Shown here piece by piece: positions 6,832 to 23,898 of a stretch of DNA of 32,855 bases. Positions within the stretch are counted from its first letter, which is position 1. Every line of letters begins with the position of its first letter. The notes beneath the pieces were generated by a model that did not search any database, was not told the DNA's origin, and saw only the letters and a program-made list of their open reading frames with translations. Position numbers and translations under genes: made by a program. Source of the DNA: Myxococcales bacterium (GTDB lineage Bacteria > Myxococcota_A > UBA9042); the NCBI GenBank assembly GCA_037441385.1, contig JBBISH010000075.1, forward strand, positions 1 through 32,855, given 5' to 3'.

Positions 6832-7224
6832 CGCGCACGCCGCTGCTGTCAGTGTCGCAATCCCCGGCCGCCGGGAAATCCGAAAGCCACAGAGCGATTG
6901 GAATCTTTACTATTCGAAATGATGTGCAGAGTTCGGCACGGGCGCGCGGTCCGGGCGGGCGCAACGCCGCGTCGTTCACCCTGTTGATCGTACGAGCTAT
7001 TTTCCGTTTGGCGACCAAAGGTTTGGGACCAACGCCGCCCCGCGGCCGGCAAGGCCAATGCGGTCACGGTCATGATCGGGGCGCTGGAAAACCCGGCGTA
7101 GCAATGTCATACGGAATCCATCTAGTGCGCAAAATCTCAAGTTCTTTCAGGGTTGCGGTCGTCGGCGTACTGGGCGGCGCAAGCCGCACGCGGGGGTCGC
7201 AGGGGACGCGCCGCAGCTCCGCAC

Positions 7225-8166
7225 CTACGGGGTGCCGGTCGCGCTGGCGCAGCGGGGGAGTCCGACCCAGGTGCGGGTGTCGTGGGCCGTGACGAGGTGG
7301 ACGGCTCCAAGCTCGTGCAAGGCGTGGAGGTGGCCCAAGGTGTCGGCGGTCTGGTCGGCGTCGAAGTCTGCGAACGCACCGGCCAAGCGGCCCTTGGGAA
7401 CCGGTTCTTCAAAACCCTCTTTGACCCAGGCGGCGTCGCCGATGAAGAACCAGGGCTTGGTGCCGTCGCCGGTTTGGACCAGGTAGCTGGTGGCGCCGGG
7501 CGTGTGGCCAGGGGTGGGGACGGCAATCACGCTGCCGTCGCCAAAGACATCGCGCGACGCGGCGAAGCCGAAGAGCGGCGGGCCATCGAAGTCCATGCGA
7601 TCGATACGGTTTTGGAGGCCCGTGAAGTGGTCCTTCATGGCGCCGTCGGCAAAGGAGCTGGTCTGGGCGTCGGTGGCCGCGGCGTCGGCGCGCGCCATGA
7701 CGATGCGGGCGTTGGGCAGGTCGCGCAGGCCGCCGGTGTGGTCCCAGTGGCGGTGAGTAAGGAGGACGTGCGTGACTTGCTCGGGCCGTATGCCGACTTG
7801 CACAAGGAGCTTGCCCAGGCCCGTTGCGGGTCGGGCGGCGTTGCCGATGGCGAGGCGGAACCACCATGGCGCGGCGTCGATGTCGGCGGGGGTGGCCTCA
7901 CCAAGACCGGCGTCGATGAGGACGACCCGGTCGCCTTGGCGGAGCACAAAGGACGAATAGGCCTGCCGCCACGGGCCGCGGAAGAAGCCGCGTGCGCCGT
8001 TGCTCAGGTTTTCGTCGACTTCCAAGTGGATGAGGGCGCAGGGCTGCAGCGGCGGACTGCGCCGGGCCGGAAGCTCGGCGGCGGGGCGGGCGTACTGCGG
8101 GATGTTGGGCGCGCAGGCGCTGAGGAGTGCGGCAGTGGCGGCCACGGCCAGGGATCGAGCGTGCAT
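7225..8166 (-). CDS. MBL-fold metallo-hydrolase lipoprotein, N-acyl-homoserine lactonase-like
   Basis: AAGGAA SD before ATG 8166; lipobox LSA-C; LIDAG, THRHWDHTGG (HxHxDH), PTPGHTPG, FIGDAAW, TAHD. Confidence 0.85.
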   Translation of the reverse strand: MHARSLAVAATAALLSACAPNIPQYARPAAELPARRSPPLQPCALIHLEVDENLSNGARGFFRGPWRQAYSSFVLRQGDRVVLIDAGLGEATPADIDAAPWWFRLAIGNAARPATGLGKLLVQVGIRPEQVTHVLLTHRHWDHTGGLRDLPNARIVMARADAAATDAQTSSFADGAMKDHFTGLQNRIDRMDFDGPPLFGFAASRDVFGDGSVIAVPTPGHTPGATSYLVQTGDGTKPWFFIGDAAWVKEGFEEPVPKGRLAGAFADFDADQTADTLGHLHALHELGAVHLVTAHDTRTWVGLPRCASATGTP

Positions 8167-8340
8167 GGGGCAAGTTCCTTGGGAGGCGGCGCGGCGGTTT
8201 ACGTTGTGCGACGCGCCACACTGGCCGAGTCGGGGCGCGCCTGTCAATGCCGCGGGCCGCAATCAAGTGGCCGCGCGCTGGATTTCGCGTCGCTGGACCT
8301 CGATTCGGGCCGGGCGCTGGGTGGGGCGGCTGCGGTGCGC

Positions 8341-9525
8341 TCACTCGCCGCGGCGCGGGTCTTCTTGTTGCGAGGCCCGGCGGAGGGCGGCGCGGCCAAA
8401 GCGGTCGCGCACGGCATCCAGGGCCTTGTCCAGGCGCTCGTCGCGCTGGCGCTCGCGGTCTGAGAAGAGATCGGGCTGCACGGGCTCGCTGTCGGGCCGG
8501 AGGTCCCATGCCGCCATGCCGATCAGGCGGTAGGGCCGGCGGAGGTCGAAAAGCGGCAGGAGCTCTGCCGCTGTGGCGAGGAGCGCCCGGGCGCTGGACG
8601 TTGGCGGTGCCACGCGCGCCTGATGGGTCAGGAGCTGAAAGTCGGTGGTCTTGAGCTTGACCCGGACACCGCCGGCCCGCAAGTGTTCGCGGCGCAAACG
8701 GAAAGCGATGGTATCCGCAGATTCGATGAGGTGCGGCCAAATCGCGTCGCGGCCGACGGCATCGACCATGAGGGTCTGCTCCGAGCCGATGGACTTGGCG
8801 TCGCGGTCGGGCACGACGGGGCGGTCGTCGCGGCCCAGGGCGAGGTCCTGCAGGAACGGCCCGTGGCTACCCAGGGCGCGGGCGAGCCAAGCGCGATCGG
8901 CGGCCGCCACGTCGCCGATGGTCCGCAGCCCCAGGGACTGGAGCTTGGGTACGGATTTCTCGCCTACGCCCCAGAGGCGCGACACCGGCAGGGGCGCGAG
9001 AAATGCCTGGGTCTCTTGGGCTGGTACCACCACGAGCGCGTCAGGCTTGCGGAGATCCGAGGCGACCTTAGCGACGAACTTGCACGCCGCCACCCCGACC
9101 GAGACGCGCAACCCCGTCTCGCTCCACACACGCTCTTTCAGACGGCGCGCCGCGGCGACAGGGTCGCCCCAGAGGCCGCGCGTGCCGGTCAGGTCGATGA
9201 AGGCCTCGTCTAGCGACAGGCCCTCGACGAGCGGCGAAAAGCTGCCGAAGATCTCGAAGATCTGCGCACTCACCGCCTGGTACTGGGCAAACCGCGGCGG
9301 CACGATGATGGCCTGCGGGCAGCGACGCTTGGCCTGCGCCAACGGCATCGCCGAGCCCACGCCGAAGGGCCGCGCCTCGTAGCTCGCCGTGGTGACGACG
9401 GAACGCGGGCTGTCGTACGCGACCAGCACCGGCTTGCCGCGAAGGGCCGGGTCGTCGCGCTGTTCCACCGCCGCGTAGAACGCGTCCATGTCCGCGTGCA
9501 AGATGGCGCGCGCCGCTCCAGACAA
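8341..9525 (-). CDS. dinB: DNA polymerase IV (Y family)
   Basis: ILHADMDAFYAAVEQRDDP, TASYEAR, SLDEAFID, AKVASDLRKPD, LWGVG, KSIGSEQT; TTG start preceded by AAGGA. Confidence 0.96.
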   Translation of the reverse strand: MSGAARAILHADMDAFYAAVEQRDDPALRGKPVLVAYDSPRSVVTTASYEARPFGVGSAMPLAQAKRRCPQAIIVPPRFAQYQAVSAQIFEIFGSFSPLVEGLSLDEAFIDLTGTRGLWGDPVAAARRLKERVWSETGLRVSVGVAACKFVAKVASDLRKPDALVVVPAQETQAFLAPLPVSRLWGVGEKSVPKLQSLGLRTIGDVAAADRAWLARALGSHGPFLQDLALGRDDRPVVPDRDAKSIGSEQTLMVDAVGRDAIWPHLIESADTIAFRLRREHLRAGGVRVKLKTTDFQLLTHQARVAPPTSSARALLATAAELLPLFDLRRPYRLIGMAAWDLRPDSEPVQPDLFSDRERQRDERLDKALDAVRDRFGRAALRRASQQEDPRRGE

Positions 9526-9546
9526 GATGCATCCTTATGTCATGTT
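9521..9546 (+). repeat. Intergenic repeat site A, GACAAGATGCATCCTTATGTCATGTT (overlaps dinB SD and start codon)
   Basis: 23/26 identical to the reverse complement of site B (11457-11482). Confidence 0.8.
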
Positions 9547-9584
9547 AATGAAGTTGAAATGGAATCTTCGATCTAGTGCGGTTT

Positions 9585-11162
9585 CTAGTACGCCTGTGTC
9601 GGGGTCGAGCTGCCCTTGCCCGCGAGTGGGCCGCACTGGCCCAAGTAGCTGTCGCCCCAGCACCAGACGGTGCCGTCGCCGCGCACGGCGCAGGTGTGGA
9701 CGGTGCCGGCCGCCACGCCCAGGACGTCGCCAAAGCCCTTGAGTTCAGCCGGGAACGCGTTGGACGCGGCGGCGGGCAGGCCCAGCTGACCGTTGCCATT
9801 GCCGCCCCAGCACCAGAGGCCGCCGCCCGTGACCGCGGCGCACGAGTGGCTGCCGCCCGCGGCGATCGCGGTCGCGCTGTCCAAGGCCACGACTTGCGGC
9901 GTGGAGTAGTAGCTGTTGCCGCCGCCCGTGCCGAGTTGCCCAGAGGACTGCTTGCCCCAACACCGCACCGACCCGCCGACGACGATCGCGCAACCGTGGT
10001 TCTCGCCTGCGGAAAGCGTAGCAATGCCTTGCAGGCCGGAGATCACGACTGGGGTGTCCGCCTCTTTGCTGGTGCCGCCGTTGCCGTCGCCGAGTTCGCC
10101 GTCTTCGTTGTAGCCCCAGCAGAGACCTGTGCCAGTGGCGGTGCGGACACAGGTGTGGTTGGGCCCGGCGACGATGACAGTGGCCGCGGCGGCGCCGAGC
10201 TTGGCCTTGACCACGGCCTTGGGAATATTGGCAAGACCGTCGCCGAGTTGGCCAGCAGTGCCCAGGCCCCAGCACTTCACCGCGCCGCCGCCTACGATGG
10301 CGCACGAGTGGTAGCCGCCCGCAGCGACCGCGACCGCGTCGGCGATTTCGGGGACGGCGGTGGGCTTGACGAGAGTCTTGGCCGCAGCCGCCGGGCTACT
10401 TCCGCCGAACTCGTTGTCGCCCCAGCACAAAACGGCCCCGTTTGCGACGGCGCAGCAGTGGCTGGGACCGCAGGCCAGGTCGGTTGCGCCGCTGACGCCC
10501 TCGACAGGGCCCGGCGTGGCGCTGGAATGCCCGCTCCCGGTCTGGCCATCGCCGAGCTGTCCGGTGGCGCCGTCGCCCCAGCATTGCACGGTGCCGTCGG
10601 TGAGACGTGCGCAGGTGGTGTAGCCGGCGGCGACCACTTGGACGGCCTTGACGGGGTCGGCGAGGCAGAGGCCCGAGTGGCACGAATGGCCGTCGCCGCA
10701 CGGGCTGTTGTCGGCCGCGTTGCCGGACGAGCAAGAGCCAATCGCCATGCAGGTCAACTTCTTGCAGGGTGGCGCGGTTCCGCAACCGTTGACAGAACAG
10801 CCCGCGTCCGCTGCGGCGGTGTCCCCAGGCGCGGCATCGGTCGGCGAACCGTCGGGACCGGCCGCGTCGGCGGCTGCGGTGTCTCCGCTTGTCGGGTCCG
10901 GCGAGTCTGGCCCAAGCGTGGCGTCGCCGCCACTGGCCGTGTCAGCCGGTGCCGTATCGTTGCCAGGGGCGCCGTCCAAAGAGCCGCCCGAATCCGCCGC
11001 GGCGGCGGCATCTGCCCCGAATTGGTTGGCATCTGGGACGGCATTGGGGCAGCCGGCTAGGCAGACCGCAAGGGCGGCTCCCAGAGCGGCGAATCGAAGA
11101 ATCTTGAGCCTGTTTCTTGCCTGGGGGGCACAGGACCGGGGGCGGAAGCGGTCTGGAATCAC
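9585..11162 (-). CDS. RCC1-repeat (BLIP-II-like beta-propeller) lipoprotein; start GTG 11162 or 11195
   Basis: Lipobox LAG-C, D/A/P-rich linker, short Cys-rich segment, about 7 repeats of the type AAGGYHSCAI..GG.VKCWG.G..GQLGDG. Confidence 0.88.
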   Translation of the reverse strand: MIPDRFRPRSCAPQARNRLKILRFAALGAALAVCLAGCPNAVPDANQFGADAAAAADSGGSLDGAPGNDTAPADTASGGDATLGPDSPDPTSGDTAAADAAGPDGSPTDAAPGDTAAADAGCSVNGCGTAPPCKKLTCMAIGSCSSGNAADNSPCGDGHSCHSGLCLADPVKAVQVVAAGYTTCARLTDGTVQCWGDGATGQLGDGQTGSGHSSATPGPVEGVSGATDLACGPSHCCAVANGAVLCWGDNEFGGSSPAAAAKTLVKPTAVPEIADAVAVAAGGYHSCAIVGGGAVKCWGLGTAGQLGDGLANIPKAVVKAKLGAAAATVIVAGPNHTCVRTATGTGLCWGYNEDGELGDGNGGTSKEADTPVVISGLQGIATLSAGENHGCAIVVGGSVRCWGKQSSGQLGTGGGNSYYSTPQVVALDSATAIAAGGSHSCAAVTGGGLWCWGGNGNGQLGLPAAASNAFPAELKGFGDVLGVAAGTVHTCAVRGDGTVWCWGDSYLGQCGPLAGKGSSTPTQAY

Positions 11163-11420
11163 GATCTCCTCTCGTCGCCCCGGCAGGTAGATCACGTGCG
11201 CCTGGGTTCGGGTGGAGCATAGCAGGATTTGCCGTGGATGTGTGGAGTCTTGCGTGCGATTGGCCGATGCGGTCGCCCCCAGAGCGAGCGGCCAGGTCGG
11301 GGTCGACGCGCAAGCGCCTAGAGAGCGGATCAGCGGAGCCGGCGGGGTACGTGGGCGTGGGCTTGCCTTGGATTGGGCATCGATTCGGAACGCGCCCCTT
11401 GGGCGCGCGGCGCGGAAACG

Positions 11421-11449
11421 TTGACGGATCGCGGAAATTTACCTATTGC
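11421..11449 (+). promoter_or_regulatory. Possible sigma70-type promoter TTGACG-N17-TATTGC pointing into site B and the Cys-rich gene
   Basis: Good -35 and 17-nt spacing, weak -10, locally AT-rich. Confidence 0.35.
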
Positions 11450-11456
11450 TATCCAC

Positions 11457-11482
11457 AACATGACACAAGGATGCGTCGTGTC
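11457..11482 (-). repeat. Intergenic repeat site B, AACATGACACAAGGATGCGTCGTGTC on the + strand (inverted relative to A)
   Basis: GACAC-N11-GTGTC dyad; inverted copy of site A. Confidence 0.8.
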
Positions 11483-11546
11483 GGCCCGTCGATTGCCTGA
11501 CGGATTGCCGTGCAGTACACTGATTGCAGTCGCGAGGAGCTACAAC

Positions 11547-13709
11547 GTGCCAGGAACGCATACCCGCAATGGTCGCGCCAGTCTCGCTGCCGCGTTTGCC
11601 GTCCTATTGGCGTGCGGAAGTCCAGGCGAGGGTCCGGTTGGGGTTGCCTCGGTTGGGATGGGCGACGTCGGGGACACGTACGGCAACGTCGGCACCCATG
11701 ACCAGGGAACTGGGCGGGTCGCTGCGGATTCGGCACTGGAGGCGATGGACGGCAAACTGAGCCAACCCGAAGCTGGTCACCAAGGAGCGGTGCCGGATGG
11801 GGCTTCGGAAGCGGGCGCCGATGTTGCAGCATCGCTGGACGTGGTTGGCGACTGGGATGCAGACAACGCGCCGGACTGGGCGCCCTGGGACGTCGATGAG
11901 GCGGCCAACGACGTAGCTACCGCTGACGACGCGGTGGACGCCGGCGAAGCGGTGCCATCGGATTCAGACCTGGGCGTTGACCTCGTCGAAGACGCGACCA
12001 AGTTTCTTGATGGGCAACCAGATTCCTCGGCAGAGGATGGCACGGACTCGGACTCGGAGGCCAAGGGGCCAGGGCCCGATGCCGGCGACGCGGCCAAGCC
12101 GCAGGACGTGGCAGCATGCCCGTCGCCTCCAGGCTCGGGTTGCGATGATGCCGACCCCTGCACCGTGGATACCTGCGCTGCCGAGGGAGCGTGCATCCAT
12201 ACGGCTTTGGAGTGCGGCGACGGCAACCCGTGCACCGCGGACAACTGTGGTTCTACCGGAATATGTGCACACGTCCCACTGGATTGTGACGACAGCAACG
12301 CCTGCACTAGCGACACGTGTGGCGGGGCTGGCTCGTGCGTCCATGCGGCGGTAGATTGTAGCGACGGCAATCCGTGCACCCAAGACGGCTGTGCTTCTGA
12401 CGGGTTATGCCTGCACGTTCCCGCTGCATGCGACGACGGGAATGCTTGCACAGTAGACTCTTGCGCTGGTCCAGGTGGGTGTTTCCACGCCCCTGTGCTC
12501 TGCGACGATGCTGACATTTGCACGATCGACGCGTGCGAAAGCGGCGGGACATGCCTGCACGCACCACTCTCGTGCGACGACGGAAAGCTCTGCACGACCG
12601 ATTCATGTGCGCCCAAGAGCGGTTGCCTGCACGCGCCCGTCGACTGCGCAGACGATCTGGTGTGCACGCTGGACGGGTGCGACCCGGCCGACGGAGCATG
12701 TACGCACAGTCCGCAGCCTGACTGTGCTGGGACCTGTTCGAGTGGCGTGCCGTGGTGGCAGGGTCAGAAGTTCTCGTGCAAGGCCTTCGCGAACAGCCCT
12801 GGCTGGCAAATCGCGCCGGGCTTCGTGGCCAGGGTGGTCGCTGGCGCCGCTCAAGGATTCAAGCAACCCAACGCAATCGCTTGGGGTGGTTGCGGCTACG
12901 GCGGCAAGTTGTATGTGGTCGACCTGGTTGCCGCTTCGGTATTTGCCGTGGATTTGATGACAGGCAAGGTAAGCGTCTTTTCGAAAGGCGCCAACTGGCC
13001 AAGTCAGCCCGTCTTGTTGACTTCGGTGGCGTGGGACCAGGACGGTCTGCTTGACGGGGCGCTGTACATTGGCGACCAGGGAACCGACAACGATGGAGAC
13101 GCAAAGGTCTTTCGAATCGACGCGCTTGGCGCGTCGCAGGTATTTGTGGGCGGACCCGGACCCGGTCTAAACGACATCTTCACGATGGTCTTCGTAAATT
13201 CACCTGGGTATCCGGTGGGGCTCTACATCGCTGGCGACACCGACGGGCCTTCGGTGGACTGGGGAGTAGTCGATAAGACGGCAAACTCGATGACGTTTTC
13301 CAAGCTTCGCGATGCCGAGGGCGCGTGCGTCGATCAAGCAGGACAATTTGGCGGCGGACTGCTTGTAGCGCGGCCAGCCAGCGGCGGCTACTTGGGCGAT
13401 GACGGAATCGATCACCTACTGGCGGACGGGAGCAAAGGCGCCTCGTTGATTTCTGGCGTACCTGGCATCCATGCACCCGCAATCGCGCCGCCGGGGCCAT
13501 TTGGCGGCTTTCTGTATGCGGCGAGCTGGCAATCGGGAGAGATTCTTTCGATATCGCCTGCGGGCGCGGCCTCCACATTCGTCTCACAGCTTGCGCTGAG
13601 CAACTACGACGGGAACATTCTTGCCTTTTCGCCAGACGGAACCGCGTTGCTGGTCGCGGAGAGCATGGCGGGGCGGGTGGTCTGTGTCGAGGCCAACAGC
13701 GGCCCCTAG
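11547..13709 (+). CDS. Putative lipoprotein with 8 Cys-rich CDDGNxCTxDxC repeats and a C-terminal beta-propeller (NHL/SMP-30-like)
   Basis: GAGGAG SD 7 nt before GTG 11547; LAAAFAVLLA-C lipobox-like; acidic linker; 24-aa Cys repeats; propeller blades (PNAIAW..GKLYVVD, GALYIGD, LAFSPDGTALLVAES). An in-frame upstream ATG lies inside site B (11460). Confidence 0.82.
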   Translation: MPGTHTRNGRASLAAAFAVLLACGSPGEGPVGVASVGMGDVGDTYGNVGTHDQGTGRVAADSALEAMDGKLSQPEAGHQGAVPDGASEAGADVAASLDVVGDWDADNAPDWAPWDVDEAANDVATADDAVDAGEAVPSDSDLGVDLVEDATKFLDGQPDSSAEDGTDSDSEAKGPGPDAGDAAKPQDVAACPSPPGSGCDDADPCTVDTCAAEGACIHTALECGDGNPCTADNCGSTGICAHVPLDCDDSNACTSDTCGGAGSCVHAAVDCSDGNPCTQDGCASDGLCLHVPAACDDGNACTVDSCAGPGGCFHAPVLCDDADICTIDACESGGTCLHAPLSCDDGKLCTTDSCAPKSGCLHAPVDCADDLVCTLDGCDPADGACTHSPQPDCAGTCSSGVPWWQGQKFSCKAFANSPGWQIAPGFVARVVAGAAQGFKQPNAIAWGGCGYGGKLYVVDLVAASVFAVDLMTGKVSVFSKGANWPSQPVLLTSVAWDQDGLLDGALYIGDQGTDNDGDAKVFRIDALGASQVFVGGPGPGLNDIFTMVFVNSPGYPVGLYIAGDTDGPSVDWGVVDKTANSMTFSKLRDAEGACVDQAGQFGGGLLVARPASGGYLGDDGIDHLLADGSKGASLISGVPGIHAPAIAPPGPFGGFLYAASWQSGEILSISPAGAASTFVSQLALSNYDGNILAFSPDGTALLVAESMAGRVVCVEANSGP
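12141..12722 (+). repeat. 8 x 24-aa Cys-rich repeats (Dictyostelium CTDC/myxobacterial type)
   Basis: CDDADPCTVDTC, CGDGNPCTADNC, CDDSNACTSDTC, CSDGNPCTQDGC, CDDGNACTVDSC, CDDADICTIDAC, CDDGKLCTTDSC, CADDLVCTLDGC. Confidence 0.9.
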
Positions 13710-13727
13710 CGCCCAGACATACACCAA

Positions 13728-13753
13728 GACACCAAGGCAGCCTTGTGTCATGT
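13728..13753 (+). repeat. Intergenic repeat site C, GACACCAAGGCAGCCTTGTGTCATGT (same orientation as A)
   Basis: Shares GCA.CCTTGTGTCATGT with A/B; starts 18 nt after the Cys-rich gene stop. Confidence 0.75.
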
Positions 13754-14147
13754 GGCCACAGGTATTGGGGAACTTGGAGCGCGAGCACCGGCTCCGGCGG
13801 CGGTGGACGAGGCCGGGCGGCCGGTGGTCGTCGGGGACGTGAAGTCGCACGGCCGGATGCCGCGGATGCTGGCGGTGAACGTCGCGGCGTGGATCGAGTT
13901 CGAGGCCATGCTCGACCCGTTCGAAGCGGAATCCGCTGCGGCCCGCAAGGCGTTGAATCGGCACGTCAAGCGCATCGGCGACGCAGTGCGACTGCGCTTG
14001 GTGCGGTTCCCGGAGTACGCCCTGATTGGCGGTGGTGTTGGAGCCCGGCCCGCCTGGAGACGCGACCAACTACTGGACATTCGTTCAGCAATTGGCTCTG
14101 CCAGTCGCGTCTCCAGCTCCAAGTGGGCCGCAAGCGAGCGCCAATAG
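13743..14147 (+). CDS. Hypothetical protein or gene remnant
   Basis: Central part (~13800-14025) has strongly G/C-ending codons in this frame; no recognisable motif; the ORF starts inside site C. Confidence 0.35.
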   Translation: MCHVATGIGELGARAPAPAAVDEAGRPVVVGDVKSHGRMPRMLAVNVAAWIEFEAMLDPFEAESAAARKALNRHVKRIGDAVRLRLVRFPEYALIGGGVGARPAWRRDQLLDIRSAIGSASRVSSSKWAASERQ

Positions 14148-14209
14148 CGACTCGCCGCGCCGGGTTCAAAGGTTCGGACGCGCGGGGAAAGTCCAAGATG
14201 ATCCGCTCT

Positions 14210-15082
14210 CTAGAGGTCCGTGCGGAGCTGCCAGAGCTCTGGGAAGAGCACCGTATCCAGCATTTTGCGCAGGTACCCGACGCCGCTCGTGCCGCCGGTG
14301 CCGCGCTTGAAGCCGATGACCCGCTCCACCGTGGTGACGTGCCGGAAGCGCCAGAGGCGAAATGCGTCTTCCAAATCGGTCAGTTCCTCGCCGAGTTGGT
14401 ACAGGTCCCAGTGCTCTCGCGGCGACCGGTACACGGCCAACCACGCAGCCAGGACAGCGTCACTGGTTCGGTGTGGCTCGGTCCAGTCGCGTTGCAAGTG
14501 CTCACTTGGTATGGAGAATCCTCGACGAGCCAGTAGAGCGAGGCACTCGTCGTAAAGCGACGGCGCGCGGAAGGCCGCCTCGACAACGGCAAACCGCTCG
14601 GTCCGGTGCGCGTGCGGTTGGAGCATCGCCGCGTTCTTGTTCCCCAGTGCGAACTCAATGCACCGGTACTGCCAACTCTGAAACCCGCTGGAATTACCAA
14701 GATATCCGCGAATCGCCGAGTACTCCGGCGGCGTCATGGTCGCAAGCACGTCCCAGGCATGCACCAACTGCTCCAGGATGCGCGACACGCGCGCCAGCAT
14801 CTTGAACGCCGGCGCCAGCTCGTCGCGCTGGATCGCCGCAATCGCCGCCGACAATTCGTGCAGCAGCAGCTTCATCCACAGTTCGCTGGTCTGGTGCTGG
14901 ACGATGAACAGGAGTTCGTTGTGGTCCGGCGACAGCGGATGCTGCGCACCCAGGATCGCGTCCAACTGCAAGTAGTCGCCGTAGCTCATCTTTTTCGAGA
15001 AATCCAACTCGGCACCTTCGTGTCGGATCTCGTGTCGGATCTCGTGTCGGATCTCGTGTCGGACGACGTCAGCGTTGCTCAT
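14210..15082 (-). CDS. kynA: Tryptophan 2,3-dioxygenase
   Basis: [62 protein letters not shown]. Confidence 0.97.
15018..15063. repeat. 12-bp tandem repeat (TCGTGTCGGATC) x3.8 in the kynA 5' end, encoding (RHEI)n
   Basis: Perfect units at 15018, 15030 and 15042, plus a 10-nt partial unit at 15054. Confidence 0.95.
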
Positions 15083-15103
15083 TGCACCCCCCGGAGTCAG
15101 AGT

Positions 15104-16405
15104 CTAGGTCACCGCACCACGGCGGGCGAACTGCGAGCCGCGCCACTCGTCGCTGTGCAGCACTTCGGCGAGTTGCTCCGCTGCGTCCCAAGCGTCGACG
15201 TAGCGCGTGTAGAGCGGCGTGAACCCGAATCGCAAGATGCCTGCGCCACCACGGCGGTCGGGGTCAGCACGAAAATCACCAACGATTCCACGGGCGATCA
15301 AGGCCTGCATGACAGGAAAGCCGTCGGGATGGGTCAAGCTCACCTGGCTGCCCCGCTCGCTTGGATCGGCGGGCGTGATGCAAATCAGGTCAAGACCTGA
15401 ACATTTCTCCTGAACTTGGCGGAGGAAGAGGTCGGTCAAGGCCACGGACTTGGTCCGAATCGCCGCCATTCCGCCCAGCGGCTCGGCGGCCCGCAACGTC
15501 GCAACGCCGCATTCCAGGGCCCGCAGCGCCAAGATGGGCGGGGTGCCGCACGCGAACCTTTGAATGCCGTCGGCGGGGCGGTAGCCGGGCTCGAAGGCAA
15601 ACGGGGCCGCGTGGCCCATCCAGCCGGATAGGGGCTGCCGCACGCCATCCTCCTGCAGCCGCCGAAGGTGGCGCGGGTGCACCCAGGCAAAGGCGGGCGC
15701 CCCGGGACCGCCGTTCAAGTACTTGTAACCACAGCCCACTGCAAAATCGGCATCCTCCGTGTCGTCGCGGTGGCCGGCGAGCTGCAGCGGCACCGCCCCC
15801 GCCGAATGAGCGAGATCCCAGACCACCTGCGTCCCGCTCCGGTGCGCCGCGCGATTCACTTCCGCCATCGGCAGCATCCGCCCAGTGCGGTAGTTCACGT
15901 GCGTCCACAGCACCACGGCCGCCTCTGGCCCCAGCGCCGCGAGCAGCTCGTCGTGGGCCACCAGTCTCAGCTCTAGCCCGTGTTGCGCGGCGACCGACTC
16001 GGCCACGTACAAGTCCGTCGGGAAGTTGCTCCGCTCGGAAAGCAGAACCCGCGCCCCAGGGCGGTCGCGCCGCTGCAGGGCCGCCGCCACGCTGAGCACC
16101 TTGTACAGGTTCACCGACGTCGAGTCGCCCACCGCGACCTGCTCCAGACCTGCCCCAATCACCGGCGCCAGTTCGTCGCCGATCCGCCGCGCCAAGTCGA
16201 TCCAGCCGGCGTCGTTCCAGCTGCGAATCAGACCTTGGCCCCATTCGCCCGCCACCGTCTCTGCGACACGGCGCTGGGTGGCTTTGGGGAGCGCGCCCAG
16301 GGAGTTCCCATCCAAGTAGACCAATCCGTCCGGCAAGTCGAACTGCGCGCGGAGCGGCCCCAACGGGTCGTCCCGGTCGAGTCGTTCGCATTCAGCACGG
16401 TTCAT
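15104..16405 (-). CDS. kynU: Kynureninase (PLP-dependent); start ATG 16405 or GTG 16411
   Basis: YLDGNSLG, NFPTDLY, WDLAHSAGA, VGCGYKYLNGGPG, ERGSQVS, RFGFTPLY. Confidence 0.97.
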   Translation of the reverse strand: MNRAECERLDRDDPLGPLRAQFDLPDGLVYLDGNSLGALPKATQRRVAETVAGEWGQGLIRSWNDAGWIDLARRIGDELAPVIGAGLEQVAVGDSTSVNLYKVLSVAAALQRRDRPGARVLLSERSNFPTDLYVAESVAAQHGLELRLVAHDELLAALGPEAAVVLWTHVNYRTGRMLPMAEVNRAAHRSGTQVVWDLAHSAGAVPLQLAGHRDDTEDADFAVGCGYKYLNGGPGAPAFAWVHPRHLRRLQEDGVRQPLSGWMGHAAPFAFEPGYRPADGIQRFACGTPPILALRALECGVATLRAAEPLGGMAAIRTKSVALTDLFLRQVQEKCSGLDLICITPADPSERGSQVSLTHPDGFPVMQALIARGIVGDFRADPDRRGGAGILRFGFTPLYTRYVDAWDAAEQLAEVLHSDEWRGSQFARRGAVT

Positions 16406-16414
16406 CGCCACCCC

Positions 16415-17038
16415 CTACCGCAACGTCCGCAGCGCCGCGCGCACCGGCGAAGCGCACGCCCCCGCGATCCGCAGTGGCAGCGCCACCAGCTCATAGTCCC
16501 CTTCGGCCACACCGTCCAGCATCAGGTTTTCAAGTACCCGCATATTGGTCCGGAGCAGCATCTGATGACAGGGCAGGTCTTTGCTCTCGGCCGGGTCGAC
16601 CGACGCCGTGTCGATGCCCACCAGGCGCACCCCCAGCTCGGCCAGGAGCGCAACCGTCGCCGGGGCAATGGCCGCGAAATCGGGCGACCATTGCGTGGGC
16701 GCAGACTCGCAAGTCCGCAATAGGACTCGGGGCGGCAGCCCGGCGACGACCCGCCGCACGTGAGCCGGCTCCACGAGCGCCCCACAACCGCGCACATCGA
16801 GCACCCGGCACGGCCCCCAGTACGGCTCCAGGTCCACGTCCGCGATGGACGGCGCCCCGCTGGCGTAGTGCAGCGGCGCGTCCGCGTGCGCGCCCGTGTG
16901 GGGCGAGAGCGACAGCGCCGACAGGTTCACCGGACAGCCTGGGCCGATGGTCGCTGTCCAGCGCAACGCAAACGGCTCGTCGCCGGGGAACAGCGGCGAG
17001 CTTTCGCTGATTCTTGGCGAAATATCCAATATTTTCAT
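16415..17038 (-). CDS. kynB: Kynurenine formamidase (arylformamidase, cyclase family)
   Basis: DISP, SPHTGAHADAPLHY (HxGxHxDxPxH), GIDTASVDP, LENL, YELVALPL, ASPVRA; first gene of kynBUA. Confidence 0.95.
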   Translation of the reverse strand: MKILDISPRISESSPLFPGDEPFALRWTATIGPGCPVNLSALSLSPHTGAHADAPLHYASGAPSIADVDLEPYWGPCRVLDVRGCGALVEPAHVRRVVAGLPPRVLLRTCESAPTQWSPDFAAIAPATVALLAELGVRLVGIDTASVDPAESKDLPCHQMLLRTNMRVLENLMLDGVAEGDYELVALPLRIAGACASPVRAALRTLR

Positions 17039-17040
17039 AG

Positions 17041-17065
17041 CAATGACACGAGGATGCCTTGATGC
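17041..17065 (-). repeat. Intergenic repeat site D, CAATGACACGAGGATGCCTTGATGC on the + strand (inverted relative to C)
   Basis: ATGACAC.AGGATGC core; lies 2 nt from the kynB start codon. Confidence 0.7.
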
Positions 17066-17168
17066 GGCCGGGGGATTCTAGCAGCAGATTCGGCGGCGCG
17101 GCAGATCCTTTGCGCGTCACGTGCGTCTGTGCAGCATCGGCGGCCGTCGCCGCCAAGTCGAGGAGCCA

Positions 17169-17444
17169 ATGGACGCAACCAACCTGGGCGCGGCGAACCA
17201 AGGTGTGCCGGCCGGCGTGGACCCGGCGGCAGAGTTCGAGTGGCACGAGTTGCAGCGCTTGGCGGCCGCAGCGCAGCCTCGCCACATCTTCGGGCGGTGG
17301 TTGGCCGCGGTCTTGGCACTGACGGTGGTCGTCGGCGCCGGCGCCGCGGTATCGGGTCCGCGCGGCTCGGGTCTGTTGGCCGGGGCCTTGGCGCCGATTC
17401 GCTACCTGGCCGTCCAGATCGACGCGAGCCTGACGGACCGGTAG
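17169..17444 (+). CDS. Small hypothetical membrane protein (91 aa)
   Basis: GAGGAG before ATG 17169; one hydrophobic segment WLAAVLALTVVVGAGAAV; GC3-rich codons. Confidence 0.6.
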   Translation: MDATNLGAANQGVPAGVDPAAEFEWHELQRLAAAAQPRHIFGRWLAAVLALTVVVGAGAAVSGPRGSGLLAGALAPIRYLAVQIDASLTDR

Positions 17445-17567
17445 CCCGCCTCGGTTGGGGGCGTTCGCCCGGCCGGCTCGGCTCGGACGCAGGCCGCGGC
17501 GAGACAACGAAACTAGGGTCAAATCCTCAACTCTCTGGGAGCGCAGCTTCGGTTTGGGCGCGGGCTG

Positions 17568-18317
17568 CTACTTGGCCGGTTCGGTGGGCGCGGCCTCGGG
17601 TGCGGCGGGGCTCGGATGTACCGGCTCTTGCGGGAACAGCCGCCGGAATTCCTTGGTGTGCCGCTCGCGGAGTTCGTCTTTGCGCAGGAACCCGGTGAAG
17701 ACCGAAGTGTCCATCGGGAAGACCTCGGGCGACAGGTGCGATCCATACACGTGCCACACGATGAGGACGAGGAGCGCGAGCATCGCCTCGTTGCTGTGCG
17801 CCACGAACGCGGCTGGAATCAGCGCGCCCGGGATCCACGCCGCCAGTGCTGCGGGGTACAAGAGCACTAGACCCGTCACGACCATCACCAGGCCGCCCAG
17901 GACCATGCCCAGGTACTCAAACTTTTGGCGATAGTCGAACTTGGGCAGCTCGGGCGCTTCCTTCTGCAGCCCCAGGTAGTAGCGCAAATTGCCCAGGGCG
18001 TCGCGGAGATCCTGCACGGTGGGCAACAGGCTCCAGCGCATCGTGCCCCGCAGCAGGCCTGCGACAAAGACGCCGATGTGCAAGGTGGCGTGGATCGAAA
18101 ACACGATGCCCGCCGCGCGGTGAATCCACCGCGTCTTGTCCAGCCCGCCCAGCGCCGCCAGGATGCCGTTCGCGTTCGGCCCCTCGAACTTCTGGGGCAG
18201 GCCAGTGACGATGAGCACGACGAAGGTCGCCAGAACCAGGATGTGTTCCGCCCGGCGGATCGGAGTGAACCGCTCGACCCAGACACTGCCGTCTTTGCGC
18301 GTGATGATGCGAGTCAT
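17568..18317 (-). CDS. Di-heme cytochrome b membrane subunit (FdnI/HydC-like)
   Basis: RFTPIRRAEH, TGLPQKF, RWIHRAAG, KFDYRQKFEY, AHSNEAMLA, WHVYGSH; about 4 TM helices with His ligands; AAAGGAGG SD. Confidence 0.9.
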   Translation of the reverse strand: MTRIITRKDGSVWVERFTPIRRAEHILVLATFVVLIVTGLPQKFEGPNANGILAALGGLDKTRWIHRAAGIVFSIHATLHIGVFVAGLLRGTMRWSLLPTVQDLRDALGNLRYYLGLQKEAPELPKFDYRQKFEYLGMVLGGLVMVVTGLVLLYPAALAAWIPGALIPAAFVAHSNEAMLALLVLIVWHVYGSHLSPEVFPMDTSVFTGFLRKDELRERHTKEFRRLFPQEPVHPSPAAPEAAPTEPAK

Positions 18318-18329
18318 GGCATCCTCCTT

Positions 18330-19397
18330 TCAGCGGTGAACCCGCGCTCGCCACAGGTGCAGCAGGATGTGGAGCACCAGGCCGGCCATGATGAGCGGAA
18401 TGAGCACCCGATACCCCCACTGAATCAGCACCACCAGGGGTGCCGTGGCCAGGGTCGGCGGCTCGTGCGACAACCACGCGTCCGCAAAGGCGGGCGGTGC
18501 GTCCTTGTGGCACTTGCGGCAGGTGACGATGACCTCGCTCTGCAGCGTGCCATTCTTCTTGGCGGCGCGGAACGAGCGGATGTCGTGGACGCCGTGGCAG
18601 TCGCTGCAGGTCGCGATCGGTTTGCCGGGCGTGCCGGCGCCCTGGGCATAGCGCTCGTTGCTGCGGCCGTGGAAGTCGTCCAGGTAGGTCTCGACCACTT
18701 TGGTGGAGAGCCCGGTGCCGGCCATCTTCTCCGCGTCGGCGTGGCACTTGCTGCAGATGTCCCACGAGCGGGTGTGGAAGGCGGCCTTGCGCGGATCCAA
18801 GATGGCGTGCGCGCCGTGGCAGTCCACGCACATCGGCACGTTCGCCGAGGCCTTGCCCCACGCCTCGCCGTGCACGGACAGGGCGTATTGCGCGGCAATC
18901 TTGGCGTGGCACGCGCCGCAGCGCAGCGTCACGGCTTGCCGGTCCGCCTTGTCGGTCTCGTTGTGGAGGCCGTGGCAGTCCGTGCAAGTCGGCGCCTTCT
19001 GGTTGCCCTTGGCGAGTTCCTTAGCGTGAATGCTGTCTTGCGCCTTGGTGTGGTAGGCGTAGTGGCAGCGCTTGCAGGATTGGGCGCGGTCTAGCTGGTA
19101 GGCGCGCTTGGTCGGGAAGTTCACGGCCGGGTGCGGGTAGTCCTTGATGGCCGCGTGGCAGTCCTTGCAGCGGACCTCGGCGGCGTGGCCGCTCTTCTTC
19201 CACGCGTCGGCCGAGATGCCAACCGTCAGCGTCGCGCCATCGGCAAAGTGGATCGCGCTCTCTTCGCCGTCGTGGCAGTCCAGGCAGGCCGAGTTGCTGT
19301 CTTCGATGTCGCCCGCCACCGCTGCGGACGACCACAGCAGGCCCGCCGCAGCGCAGATGGCGATGGATCTTGGGATTTTGCAAAGGGGGCTGTTCAT
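18330..19397 (-). CDS. Nine-heme periplasmic cytochrome c with C-terminal membrane anchor
   Basis: GAGGAGGAG SD before ATG 19397; signal peptide; CLDCH, CKDCH, CKRCH, CTDCH, CGACH, CVDCH, CSKCH, CSDCH, CRKCH; C-terminal TM helix. Confidence 0.93.
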   Translation of the reverse strand: MNSPLCKIPRSIAICAAAGLLWSSAAVAGDIEDSNSACLDCHDGEESAIHFADGATLTVGISADAWKKSGHAAEVRCKDCHAAIKDYPHPAVNFPTKRAYQLDRAQSCKRCHYAYHTKAQDSIHAKELAKGNQKAPTCTDCHGLHNETDKADRQAVTLRCGACHAKIAAQYALSVHGEAWGKASANVPMCVDCHGAHAILDPRKAAFHTRSWDICSKCHADAEKMAGTGLSTKVVETYLDDFHGRSNERYAQGAGTPGKPIATCSDCHGVHDIRSFRAAKKNGTLQSEVIVTCRKCHKDAPPAFADAWLSHEPPTLATAPLVVLIQWGYRVLIPLIMAGLVLHILLHLWRARVHR

Positions 19398-19443
19398 GGC
19401 TCCTCCTCGTTGGCCCACCCCACGCGGGCAGAGGCGGAAGCGC

Positions 19444-19875
19444 TTACGACTGCTGGGTCTTGTTGGCCTCGTCGGCGCGCGCTTTCTCGACCTCGCCGTG
19501 CAAATCCTTCAGCTCGGCCGGTACCGCGGTCTCGCCGGGCTTCTTGGGGCTCTTGGTCAGGTACGACATGACCGGCTGCCAGCGCGGGCTGGCCAGGAAC
19601 GCGTGCTCCTGCACGGTCTCGCCCACGGCGGTGGCGGCGATGCGGGCCAGCGCGACGACGGCGCCCAGCAGGACGAGCACCGGGAAGGCCATCACGAAGA
19701 TGCCGCCCAGGACCGGCGCAGCGGCGAGCGCGAGCGGAGTGGGCACGCGGCGGTAGGTCGCGCCCGGCAGGCCGTCCAGGGCCTCGCCCTCGGCGCCCAC
19801 GAAGCGAACGTCCAGCGGCTTGGTCGAGGTGTAAAGGCCATAGCGAGCAGCTTGCAGAGTCTTGTAGGTCTTCAT
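19444..19875 (-). CDS. Small membrane protein, first gene of the cytochrome operon
   Basis: AGGAGG SD; hydrophobic hairpin VPTPLALAAAPVLGGIFVMAFPVLVLLGAVVAL; charged tail. Confidence 0.8.
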   Translation of the reverse strand: MKTYKTLQAARYGLYTSTKPLDVRFVGAEGEALDGLPGATYRRVPTPLALAAAPVLGGIFVMAFPVLVLLGAVVALARIAATAVGETVQEHAFLASPRWQPVMSYLTKSPKKPGETAVPAELKDLHGEVEKARADEANKTQQS

Positions 19876-20031
19876 GGCGTCCTCCTAGCATTTGTGGCGG
19901 GCGATGCGGAAGGGCTTCCTTTTCCTTCCCTCGTCCCGCCGCCCAACATCAAGGTACTCCCTGCGGCCGTGCGCACTATCGGGACGATCGCCCAAGCGGC
20001 GTCGGGAAAAGTGCCTAGGAGCCTGTCGGCA

Positions 20032-20057
20032 AAATGGACGACACTACATGTCCATTT
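20032..20057. promoter_or_regulatory. Inverted repeat AAATGGAC-N10-GTCCATTT, candidate operator for the cytochrome operon
   Basis: Perfect 8-bp arms next to an AT-rich tract (20051-20080), ~160 nt upstream of ATG 19875. Confidence 0.45.
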
Positions 20058-20183
20058 AGTTATACATTATGATCTTATTGGGTGCCGCCAGTCTCCTAGC
20101 CTTTTTCGTTTGTCCAACTGGCCGAAAATCGCCCGAAGTGAATTCGTGCGATTTCAGACAGTTGCCGCCGCGCAAGACGCGGC

Positions 20184-20198
20184 GCTAGGATTGTGCCG
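20184..20198 (-). promoter_or_regulatory. Possible sigma54 promoter CGGCACAATCCTAGC facing the cytochrome operon
   Basis: GG-N10-GC spacing with GGCAC, but ~310 nt from the first start codon. Confidence 0.3.
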
Positions 20199-20300
20199 GG
20201 ATTATCCCGACACGCTCCTAGTACGCCGACGCCGCCGCCCGAGAGCCTGAGCCGGCAGCCGATGACACGAGCTGAGCACTTTTACCCTAAAGGTTCATGC

Positions 20301-20325
20301 ACATGACACACGGGCGCATGGTGTC
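20301..20325 (-). repeat. Intergenic repeat site E, ACATGACACACGGGCGCATGGTGTC on the + strand
   Basis: GACAC-N11-GTGTC dyad as in site B; followed by GG as in B. Confidence 0.7.
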
Positions 20326-20481
20326 GGCGGGTCAACGCGACCGTCCAGTGGCGGACCGAGAGTGTGCGCCGCACCGCGCAGGCCATTGGCCCCAGGGACC
20401 CGGCGCAGCAATGCCGGACCCTGGACGTGTCGATGGTCTGTGCTTGCGCAGTCAGACATCAATTTTCGCTTGATACTCAGC

Positions 20482-20520
20482 CACATGACACAAGCACGTG
20501 ACACAAGGGTGCGATGGGCC
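20482..20520 (-). repeat. Intergenic repeat site F with duplicated arm: CACATGACACAAG-CACGTGACACAAG-GGTGCGATGGGCC on the + strand
   Basis: 13-bp tandem duplication (1 mismatch) of the conserved arm, then a GGGTGCG spacer; ends 10 nt from the aceA stop. Confidence 0.7.
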
Positions 20521-20530
20521 GGAGCGGAAC

Positions 20531-22801
20531 TTACTGCTTGGCGATGAGCGCCTGCAGCGGACCGCGGTCAGTGCCAATCACGCTGCGGACCCACTCGGCG
20601 GCGACGTCAGCGACGATGATGGCGCCGACCTCGGTGTGGACATTGGTGTAGATGCCAACGTCCTTCATCCGCACCGTCTGCCGCTGGTTGTCCTCAGTGG
20701 GCGAGACAAAATGCACCGAGCTGATCTTGTAGCGGTAGACGAGGAACAGGTGGGCGAGCGTCATCAGGCGCTTCTTGCGCAGCGCCGGGTCAAAGTTGTT
20801 CTGGTCGCGTACCGACAGGATGTGGTGGCCGCGCCGATCGACGATGTTCGCGAAGATGACGTTGAGGGCCTTCTTGCCGTCGGCGCCCAGGATCGCCAGC
20901 TCCAGCAGCTCCGAGCCCGCGGAGTGGGGCCGCAGCTGCACCTTGAGCGTGCCCTCGATGCCGTGGTGCGCGGCCCACAACGCCAGCCATTCTTCCAGGA
21001 CCTTTGGCGGAACTTCGGTCTGGACCAGATGCTGGAACTGGGTGGAACCCTTGCCCATCGCCTTGGTGGTCGACGTCCGGCCCGACAGCGACATCAGCGC
21101 TTCGTCGGCGCGCGGCCCGCCCACCAGGGTCTGCGGCGTGCGGTACGGCGACTCGACCAGGCGGAACTTCCGCTGCAGCCGCGCCAGCGCGAGCATGCCG
21201 TCCTGCTTCAGGGCCGCGGCGAATTCCTCGGCCGCCAAGCCGTCGATCTGGTGCCCGCCGTAGGTGATGAAGTTGAACACGAACCCCATCTTGCCCAGCT
21301 CCGCCGGGAACTGGCGCATCTGGTCGTCCGTCATCCCGGTCGTGTCCCAGTTGAACGAAGGCGACAGGTTGTAAGCCAGCATCTTGGTGGGGAACTTGGC
21401 GTGGATCGCGTCCGCAAAGCGCTTCGCATCGTGCAGGTCCGCCGTCTTGGTCTCCATCCACAGGATGTCCGCATAGGGCGCCACAGCCAGCGACTTGGCG
21501 ATCGCGTAGTCGATGCCGCCGCGAATCTGGTAGTAGCCGTCTGGGGTTTTGGCGTGTTCGCAGTCCCACGTCACGCTCGCGCCCAGCTCGGCGGCGCGCC
21601 GGCTCGCTTCGTAGAAACCGACGTGCTCGGCAAAGTCCAACCACTCTTGGCGGCTCACGTTCTTCAGCCGCCCTTCGCTGTGGGCCGAGTCGATCTGATC
21701 CGCCACCGCTTCGGCGTAGGTCTTGATGCCCGCCGCCTCTTGCCACACGTCGACGAACTTGTTGAAAGCACCGTCAAAAGCCACGTCAACATTGAAGATT
21801 TTACGGTCCAGGTAGTCCTTGGCCTGCTTGTCGACCAGTGCCAGCAGCCCCTCGCTGTCCAGCCACGCCTCGGCCTCGGCGTACTCCGCGGCGCAAGTGG
21901 CATAGATGCGGTGCCCGCTCAGTTCGGTGATGCCGTGCCCGTAGAACCGCTTGAGAATCGACAGGAAGCCGGCCTTGAAGGTCGGCACGTCCACGTTCGT
22001 CGCCCCCAAGATGAACGGCTGATCGCGCTCGTCGCCGCGGCCGTCGAGCAAGGTCGCACTCTCGGCGTCGGTGCGGGCCACGATGATGCCGGACACGCCC
22101 ATGATATCCAGCTGGAAGCGCGCCGACGAAAGCCGTTTGATCTGCTCATCTTCCGCGACCAACACCTTGCCGCCTTGGTGGCCACACTTCTTGACGCCCG
22201 GCTTCTGGTCCTCGATGTGGTAGCCCGGAACACCCACTTCCACAAAGCGGCGAATCAGGTTGCGAACATGTGCGTCACCGCCGTGGCCCGTGTCGGCGTC
22301 GGCAATGATGAATGGCCGGAAATCGACTTCTGCAACACCCTTGCGCACTTCCGCGGTCTGACGGGCCCGCGTGTGGGCCTGATTCTTGTCCGCGGTCAGC
22401 AGGGCCCGCACCACCATCGCCGCCTCGTCCGGCACGCGCGACAGCGGATAGCTGGCCAGGTCCGGCCCCGGATCCTCGTCGACAAAGCCCTTGGCGCTCG
22501 TGGCCCAACCGCCAATGTAGATGCCCTCGATGCCGGCGCGCTTGGCCGCCACCGCCTGACCGGGCGAGTACGGGCCAAACGTCGTGATGGCCTCGCCAGC
22601 ACGGAACAGCTCGCGCAGACGGGCATAAAAGCCCTCTGCCGCCGTGCGGGCCACCGTGTAGTCCGTGGGGATCGTACCGCGCTGCTCCGCGATCTCGCGG
22701 GCGCTGTGGAGCCGCACGACATCGGAAAACCGTTCGGAATCAAACCACTCCTGCACACCCCTGACCTTATCGGTCTGGACCTTTTCTCCAACGCTTCCCA
22801 T
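20531..22801 (-). CDS. aceA: Isocitrate lyase, long ICL2-type with C-terminal regulatory domain
   Basis: [56 protein letters not shown]-terminal [27 protein letters not shown] domain as in mycobacterial ICL2; 756 aa from ATG 22801. Confidence 0.95.
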
Positions 22802-22832
22802 AGCATCCCCCAGTGGCCCTTGGCCGCGCACC

Positions 22833-22868
22833 AAGATGCCTGCTGCGACACGCTGCGTCAATTGACGC
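22833..22868 (-). promoter_or_regulatory. Candidate aceA promoter (TTGACG-N17-CATCTT) with a perfect 14-bp palindrome GCGTCAATTGACGC over the -35
   Basis: -35 at 22856-22861, -10 at 22833-22838, palindrome at 22855-22868. Confidence 0.45.
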
Positions 22869-22921
22869 GCCCCGTAACATGTCATGATCAGGCAATTCCC
22901 GTGCGTTGCGCCCGTGTTCCG

Positions 22922-23791: not shown

Positions 23792-23898
23792 GTGGCGGAC
23801 CTCGCGGCGGCAGTATCGCGTTTGGCTGCCGGCCGGCAGTGTGCCGCGCTTCGCCAAAGATTGCATCCTGGCAAGGCCGCATGCGAAGGTACGCCGCC

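Follow-up and report, generated by a model that had tools for sequence, protein, structure and literature searches.

Intergenic palindromic elements of uncultured Myxococcota resemble fixed control sites bound by protein, not recombination sites

The sfx/Rci sites of the R64 shufflon have one conserved arm and a conserved 7-bp centre. The E. coli BIME and RIP elements and the Neisseria Correia elements are present in about a hundred or more copies; they have terminal inverted repeats or strong hairpins, and some of their insertions are specific to single strains. The dif and pdif sites are 28 bp long with an 11-6-11 arrangement, a variable 6-bp centre and conserved inner inverted repeats (PMC6449649). 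These systems are compared here with a family of intergenic elements in a stretch of 32,855 nucleotides (nt) from a Myxococcales bacterium (GenBank assembly GCA_037441385.1, contig JBBISH010000075.1), termed the window. Six real copies of about 55 bases each, A to F, are found at 9.5–20.5 kb of the window, and in each an AT-rich box precedes an imperfect palindrome of 23 bases. An earlier reading of the nt sequence (the original prediction) took them for candidate dif-like sites of a tyrosine-recombinase cassette array. The copies look like fixed protein-binding control sites, not recombination sites, because they have stayed in place between related genomes.

A scan of 185,579 species genomes with a degenerate pattern of 25–26 nt that fits copies A, B, C and E gave 24 loci. 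Six of these (L001, L003, L011, L012, L014 and L024) are in the metagenome-assembled genome (MAG) JACRCU01, titled ‘Deltaproteobacteria bacterium’, one (L020) is in CAISBR01, titled ‘uncultured Myxococcales bacterium’, and 17 are elsewhere. The 17 are single matches in unrelated taxa that agree with the element solely at the core positions forced by the pattern, and are taken as chance. The element family is therefore detected in just two related Myxococcota MAGs among the genomes scanned. Its copy number is low, i.e. six strict matches in the whole of JACRCU01 and one in CAISBR01. Six additional copies are found at 5 kb or less from the six strict matches of JACRCU01, thus the copies cluster locally. 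A profile made from 12 copies gives 16 matches at E ≤ 1.8e-7 in the window and the seven related loci.

The word TGACAYRMGGNYGC (TGACAY-RM-GG-N-YGC) has 13 occurrences in the seven related loci, six of which are not forced by the scan pattern, and this is independent support for the family. In the window the word has six matches where 0.03 are expected, and none of 100 shuffles reaches six, but this enrichment test is circular because the pattern was taken from the same six sites. In its descriptive part the original prediction holds well: the strings of all six sites are found on the strands and at the positions given for them, and the family is a real one whose few copies are all intergenic, stand at gene borders and cluster locally.

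Comparisons by tblastx show that L003 is collinear with window positions 5957–9993, L024 with 15257–21074 and L020 with 20486–25554; the first 400 nt of L001 are collinear with 13700–14045. Copies A, C, D, E and F each have a counterpart at the same junction in the JACRCU01 MAG (A′, C′, D′, E′ and F′), and F has a further counterpart in L020 (F″). The orthologous proteins are 75–96% identical and the 4-fold sites differ by 0.27–0.45. The intergenic region on the isocitrate lyase (ICL) side cannot be aligned except for the elements and a leader (126 nt aligned). Retention of the core in place despite this strong neutral divergence points to purifying selection. Both flanks are unchanged at all five sites that can be compared between window and MAG, and these sites show no lineage-specific gain or loss. 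The two segments in which an inversion could be recognized, namely that on the RCC1 side of copy A and that on the kyn block's C and D sides, are not inverted (0/2). The variable triplet of the element is identical in A and A′ and in C and C′, and two of its three bases agree in D and D′. Since the triplet is shared among orthologues, vertical descent with selection on the core is indicated, not homogenisation among copies.

The anatomy of the element was read from an ungapped alignment of 19 copies, two of them weak, anchored on the core. The consensus is AaTT.c.caatA.tTTCA...ACATGACACAAGGGTGC cTt GTGTCGG, with information maxima at AATT, at A..TTCA and within the core. The 35 nt or so that precede the core are rich in A and T, with blocks approximately 10 nt apart, the last of which is -10-like (TAnTTT, then CA). 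Of 17 copies, nine have the motif nAnnnT at offset -13, counted from the A of ATG, and in five of the 17 it has the form TAnnnT; other offsets give nAnnnT in at best 6 of 17. The A at box position 2 is kept in all 12 orthologous copies read from the offset table.

The palindrome begins seven bases past the -10-like box. It is 23 bp long and imperfect, is centred on a T, and has the ideal form TGACACAAGGC-T-GCCTTGTGTCA. Its left half (TGACACAAGG) hardly varies and the right half is degenerate, its inner three bases being free; the copies with a degenerate outer right arm are D, D′, C′, E′ and F. The symmetric arms GACAC/GTGTC stand 11 nt apart. All 19 copies have 5–8 of the 12 pairs symmetric, eight being reached in seven copies, and pair 2 is symmetric in all 19. 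Random 25-mers of the same DNA have a mean of 3.39 symmetric pairs, and only 0.8% of them reach eight. Dyad symmetry above chance, as looked for in an operator, is therefore present. The conserved asymmetric spacer of the original prediction proves to be the interior of this dyad, whose halves are unequally conserved. A larger composite repeat was also considered; blastn-short comparison of the intergenic regions gave only the core and one unrelated 34-nt hairpin, and the segments within tandem or inverted pairs do not align.

Possible, although short of probable, and the best supported of the readings considered, is that the element is the binding site of one dimeric DNA-binding protein at the start of a -35-less promoter. 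Protein binding, a transcription start at the site and the direction of regulation are here predicted from the nt sequence. One dimeric, sequence-specific protein would bind the palindrome through a strong and a weak half-site, and the binding site would sit exactly at the start point of the -35-less promoter, the unit being a promoter-operator module. At dinB the -10 box, the start of transcription, the ribosome-binding site AAGGA and the start codon TTG would all come from the unit, and the bound protein would block initiation. Copies B and D and the copy in L011 face genes in the sense direction. Where a copy points towards a converging gene's 3′ end, it would either initiate an antisense RNA or carry a bound protein that is a roadblock. 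A repressor-type site was the alternative named in the original prediction, and it fits better than recombination does.

Copy A (positions 9516–9572, core 9521–9545, minus strand) displays the AT-rich box and the core and has its orthologue at the same place in L003. Its core contains the AAGGA ribosome-binding site and the TTG start (position 9525) of dinB, with the RCC1 stop codon 14 nt before, and in A and A′ alike the core runs by its end into the start of dinB. In both the window and L003 the open reading frame (ORF) has the K-TG of the core as its first start codon, and the MAG protein, which begins MSGVGRS, starts at the same codon.

The putative promoter-operator unit has similarities to the operator palindromes of dimeric repressors at the transcription start, such as the SOS boxes before dinB: it is an imperfect dyad of about 23 bp at the dinB -10/+1 and ribosome-binding site, there are few per genome, and they are conserved in place among relatives. 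It differs from dimeric-repressor operators in that the half-sites are very unequal, the spacing to the AT box is fixed and many copies are at gene 3′ ends. A recA, lexA or uvrA context is absent from all eight sequences (the window and the seven loci).

Copy B (11427–11486, core 11458–11482, plus strand) is in the divergent gap between the RCC1 gene (minus strand) and a Cys-rich lipoprotein gene (plus strand), about 100 nt 5′ of a likely lipoprotein signal peptide. Copy C (13728–13779, core 13728–13753, minus strand) has the most symmetric centre, AAGGC-T-GCCTT, which is the ideal form, and carries one extra base in its right arm. It is located 19 nt past the stop codon of the Cys-rich gene and adjoins a small conserved ORF; its orthologue C′ is at positions 42–66 of L001. 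Copy D (17011–17070, core 17041–17065, plus strand) has a degenerate right arm, and a gene of 107 amino acids (aa) begins 55 nt downstream; the orthologue D′ is at L024 1785–1809. The AT-rich side overlaps the first codons of kynB (minus strand) in D and D′ and the stop codon of a Rieske gene in L001b. Copy E (20273–20330, core 20301–20325, plus strand) is inside a 655-bp gap which extends from the p143-cytochrome operon to the ICL stop codon, and its orthologue E′ is at L024 4831–4855. Copy F (20461–20522, core 20496–20520, plus strand) is 10 nt from the ICL stop codon. It has been damaged by a 13-nt tandem duplication (20482–20507) and has lost its right arm, but its orthologues F′ in L024 and F″ in L020 are intact and at the same place.

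Short tandem duplications in or just after the cores are seen in other copies as well. A 13-nt unit is present about four times at L012 1690–1742, and an 8-nt unit is present twice at C (window 13721–13736), as is the 13-nt unit of F.

The original prediction also listed four copies of the arm only, and these have fared differently. The site at 7104 is a probable decayed copy (7076–7140, minus strand, with ATGACAT at 7104–7110); it is weak, was identified by reading and has no AAGG..TGC. It has in common with copy A a 9-nt word and an upstream ATTCC, and looks like a decayed paralogue of A. The site at 22879–22885 (minus strand) is not a member of the family: its heptamer coincides with the ATG at which the isocitrate lyase ORF starts, the seventh base differs in L020, and no AAGG..TGC follows the heptamer. 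The site at 20485 is one half of the tandem duplication within F, and 20262 is a bare heptamer. The heptamer ATGACAY itself has nine matches in the window against 4.17 expected, and nine or more were obtained in 3 of 100 shuffles, a weak enrichment. All nine are at or below position 22885 and all are at gene borders, in agreement with the statement that none occurs in the housekeeping block.

The 19 copies occupy 10 distinct intergenic regions, and seven of these hold a gene start. The putative sense targets are dinB-MBL, the Cys-rich lipoprotein gene (B), the 107-aa gene (D) and a gene for a DUF4215 protein (L011). Several observations weigh against a promoter-operator unit. Only about one copy in two has the -10-like box, and a sigma-70 two-hexamer scan of positions 6800–23000 gave no promoter-like site. 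The inner left half (AAGG.TGC) is conserved far beyond the need of a plain symmetric operator. A converging gene has its stop codon 3–48 nt from the core in 8 of the 19 copies (C, F, F′, F″, L001b, L012b, L014a and L014b), and convergent regions make up 3 of the 10. In one of these, at L001 1666–1690, the element occupies the entire gap between two stop codons, a place where a promoter would not be expected. A promoter-operator unit leaves unexplained both the copies pointing at gene 3′ ends and those in convergent gaps, and either a roadblock or boundary role or antisense promoters would be natural extensions of it. In addition the neighbours have no common theme, e.g. dinB, Cys-rich lipoprotein, kynBUA, cytochromes, ICL, N-glycanase, CHAT and penicillin amidase genes. 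Some of the neighbours are paralogues of secreted repeat proteins.

No candidate for the binding protein was found encoded near the elements. The 650-aa neighbour resembles a secreted alpha/beta hydrolase (atlas 0.93) and was set aside. The small ORF beside C (window 13803–14045, L001 100–364) was likewise set aside; it is conserved with third-base changes, and it gives only a weak lead to ROK-family fragments (atlas 0.81), on account of which it may be a truncated gene remnant.

If the promoter-operator reading is correct, the element would be the recognition site of a new DNA-binding regulator in an uncultured Myxococcota lineage. The unit would be unusually rigid, with the -10 box, the start point and the operator in a single register, and could be read as a portable promoter-operator cassette. 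It offers a handle for identification of the binding protein and for reading the control of dinB, the kynurenine genes and the secreted Cys-rich proteins. If the 3′-facing copies are antisense promoters or roadblocks, they would bear on the separation of transcription units in GC-rich bacteria that are poor in hairpin terminators. A full-text search of one paper library found no description of the core or of a Myxococcota intergenic palindromic repeat family.

A related possibility is that a site-specific protein bound to the element stops read-through between units, or organises the local chromosome, with no control of a regulon. We regard this as doubtful, but it has several observations in its favour. 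The copies are spread evenly over tandem (three), divergent (four) and convergent (three) gaps, the adjacent genes are unrelated, and eight of the 19 copies are 3–48 nt past the stop codon of a converging gene. Terminator-like sites (a hairpin followed by a T-run) are rarer than expected at window positions 6800–23000, i.e. four against 10.5 expected from shuffles. However, a terminator has no role in divergent gaps, the element is the translation start region at dinB, and the sample is of only 10 intergenic regions. We know of no precedent for a boundary system with this anatomy.

The proposal that the elements are crossover sites of a tyrosine recombinase, pdif-like or shufflon-like, is an unlikely one. 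It holds that one arm and a 7-bp centre are conserved, that the recombinase is encoded elsewhere and that modules are moved or inverted. A 7-7-7 reading of the element is geometrically possible, and conservation of one arm and the centre but not of the other arm is sfx-like. The cores of A to D alternate in orientation (-, +, -, +), as the original prediction said, but E and F have the orientation of D and do not continue the alternation. Pairs of copies with the core outward bracket RCC1 and the kyn block; in L001 such a pair brackets a block of three genes, and in L014 a segment of 245 bp that is empty. An A/T tract with TTCAA beside the core is similar to an IHF site, and the clustering of copies in the MAG is also in keeping with recombination.

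In addition, the window and the MAG differ in gene content at two places, both in element-bearing intergenic regions. At L003 1215–2315 there is an extra gene for a 366-aa Cys-rich protein of secreted type, located between the 650-aa hydrolase-like gene and MBL. This gene is absent from the window; it occupies the place of the window's 7104 remnant, and homology ends at the MBL stop codon. In L001 other genes follow the small ORF beside C, synteny stops at the 3′ side of this ORF, and homology ends near 14045, inside the possible ROK fragment. Neither break in homology is at a core.

None of the tests that were run supports the recombination mechanism. The fixed flanks and the absence of inversions, described above, in a comparison whose 4-fold sites differ by 0.27–0.45, are opposed to it. 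The symmetry extends into the supposed spacer (pair 2), the right arm has been lost in at least five copies which are still kept in place, and sites overlap a start codon and gene ends. A nearby recombinase gene, which the original prediction suggested looking for, was not found: no recombinase or transposase was detected in the window or the seven related loci, where 27 window proteins, 25 further proteins and 11 NCBIfam queries were scanned.

The pattern is also unlike dif, and a search of the window for an inner dif pattern with one mismatch or less gave no match. There are similarities to the pdif modules of Acinetobacter in that short sites border blocks of one to four genes, alternate in part and have no adjoining recombinase gene. 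However, the modules of pdif are in varied contexts and on plasmids, whereas the context of the element is fixed at the five comparable sites and is chromosomal. The geometry is the opposite of that of dif and pdif, since the element has a conserved centre and a free inner right arm, whereas in pdif the centre is variable and the inner repeats are conserved (PMC6449649). With respect to R64 sfx, the conservation of one arm and the centre fits in outline, and inverted copies are present; the centre of the element, however, is part of a dyad. Unlike the shufflon, the element has no adjacent rci-like gene, and its segments are whole operons and are not within alternative gene ends; they also show no inversion between window and MAG.

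A wider form of the recombination proposal, which has a similarly small chance of being correct, is chromosomal module-shuffling by sfx-like sites with a possible IHF-type bend and a recombinase elsewhere, which would build a variable island beside ICL, made up of secreted and accessory genes. The conserved positions would then represent only the slowly changing part of the array. If recombination were true, the elements would be the first chromosomal example, outside Acinetobacter, of a system like the dif modules.

It is less likely still that the element acts at the RNA level, whether as a conserved 5′ leader that carries the ribosome-binding site and start, as a leaderless micro-ORF (MTQGC-x-V/L-S) or as an untranslated region (UTR) motif for a protein or a small RNA. 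The observations that suggest such a role are that the ATG follows the -10-like box by 7 nt in 15 of the 19 copies, that AAGG is 7 nt before K-TG, that the variable positions are the third bases of GGN and TCN, and that the L003 ATG is in frame with dinB. However, the ORFs range from 2 to more than 80 codons and their tails are not conserved, copy A reads MT-stop, and CTG replaces ATG in two copies. The third bases of ACA, CAA and TGC are invariant despite a genome G+C at third codon positions (GC3) of about 0.85, and the element is found in either orientation relative to neighbouring transcripts. A conserved fold was not found on either strand: RNAalifold on 16 copies gave 0 pairs in the forward direction and four weak pairs in reverse (-1.61 kcal/mol). 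Rfam 15 gave no match at the gathering score in the whole window and none at the elements at E up to 5 in 6800–21000.

A selfish or decaying small repeat, similar to REP (repetitive extragenic palindromic) sequences, MITEs (miniature inverted-repeat transposable elements) or mobile promoters and having no present host function, has an equally slim probability. Both orientations, the tandem and inverted pairs in L012 and L014, the short local duplications (those of F and L012), the confinement to intergenic DNA, and the presence of one fixed-register unit in all copies, which suggests spread by copying, are properties of such repeats. There are also likenesses to BIME, RIP and Correia elements: a short intergenic unit near gene ends, a protein-recognised repeat together with an IHF-like AT-rich site, and in some cases outward promoters. 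The differences are that the element has few copies, no stable hairpin (the 0 and 4 pairs above) and fixed positions, and for these reasons a REP/MITE type of repeat is unlikely. In addition, no gain or loss is seen at the comparable sites and the core is kept while the flanks are saturated. Reading of the flanks of the A-B, C-D and L014 pairs shows no target-site duplication, and collections of plasmids and phages have no match to the element.

Several other known sites do not fit: an integron attC array, which has intI beside it, a single orientation of all sites and a folded hairpin site, since no integrase was found in the window, the orientations are mixed and no conserved fold was found; a sigma-54 promoter, which has GG and GC elements at a fixed -24/-12 spacing (TGGCAC-N5-TTGC), whereas by eye the element has GA in place of GG and its TGC one base early; and a CsrA-type GGA loop, since the A of GGA varies between G, A and C across the copies. 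Among published motifs, the MrpC (CRP-type) motif TGTYN8RAC does not fit, the arms of the element being everted (PMC4320627), and the PexR palindrome differs from the element (PMC12754779).

The G+C content of the window is about 67%, and its genes (with borders called by us from ORFs, GC3 and Pfam) are typical of Myxococcota. Pfam searches of the window proteins show EGF, Dicty_CTDC and RCC1 repeat proteins and a sigma-54 activator with its kinase, together with dinB, kynA/U/B, cytochromes, a long ICL, smpB and fbp. The relatives of DinB at about 60% identity carry the names Myxococcota or Vulgatibacter. A tRNA and tmRNA search of the window gave no match. The position of a replication terminus or of dif was also considered, but the per-gene GC3 skew tracks gene strand, therefore a replication signal cannot be read from it. 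At the left end (3–2717 and 46–893), a large gene for an EGF-repeat protein contains 123-nt tandem coding repeats and runs off the window. A P-domain protein with a fibrinogen-like GGGWT domain is encoded beside it.

The 5′ part of kynA displays a perfect 12-nt tandem repeat of 3.8 units (15018–15063). The repeat unit contains GTGTCGGA, which is an 8-mer of the right arm and flank in several MAG copies of the element. This 8-mer has five matches in the window, and four of them are inside the kynA repeat array.

A non-coding leader of about 145 nt (19893–20018, minus strand) is found upstream of a 143-aa gene at 19444–19875. It is about 90–93% identical to the MAG sequence, and the remaining intergenic region cannot be aligned. 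Its fold has a z-score of -1.9 and there is no Rfam match. The leader may represent the promoter or a conserved 5′ UTR of the p143-multihaem-cytochrome b operon.

The 34-mer that was detected along with the core is GC-rich and hairpin-like, and is found at window positions 14129–14162 and at L014 4873–4906. The two copies are 88% identical and are located in unrelated convergent intergenic regions. It represents a second small intergenic motif, separate from the element.

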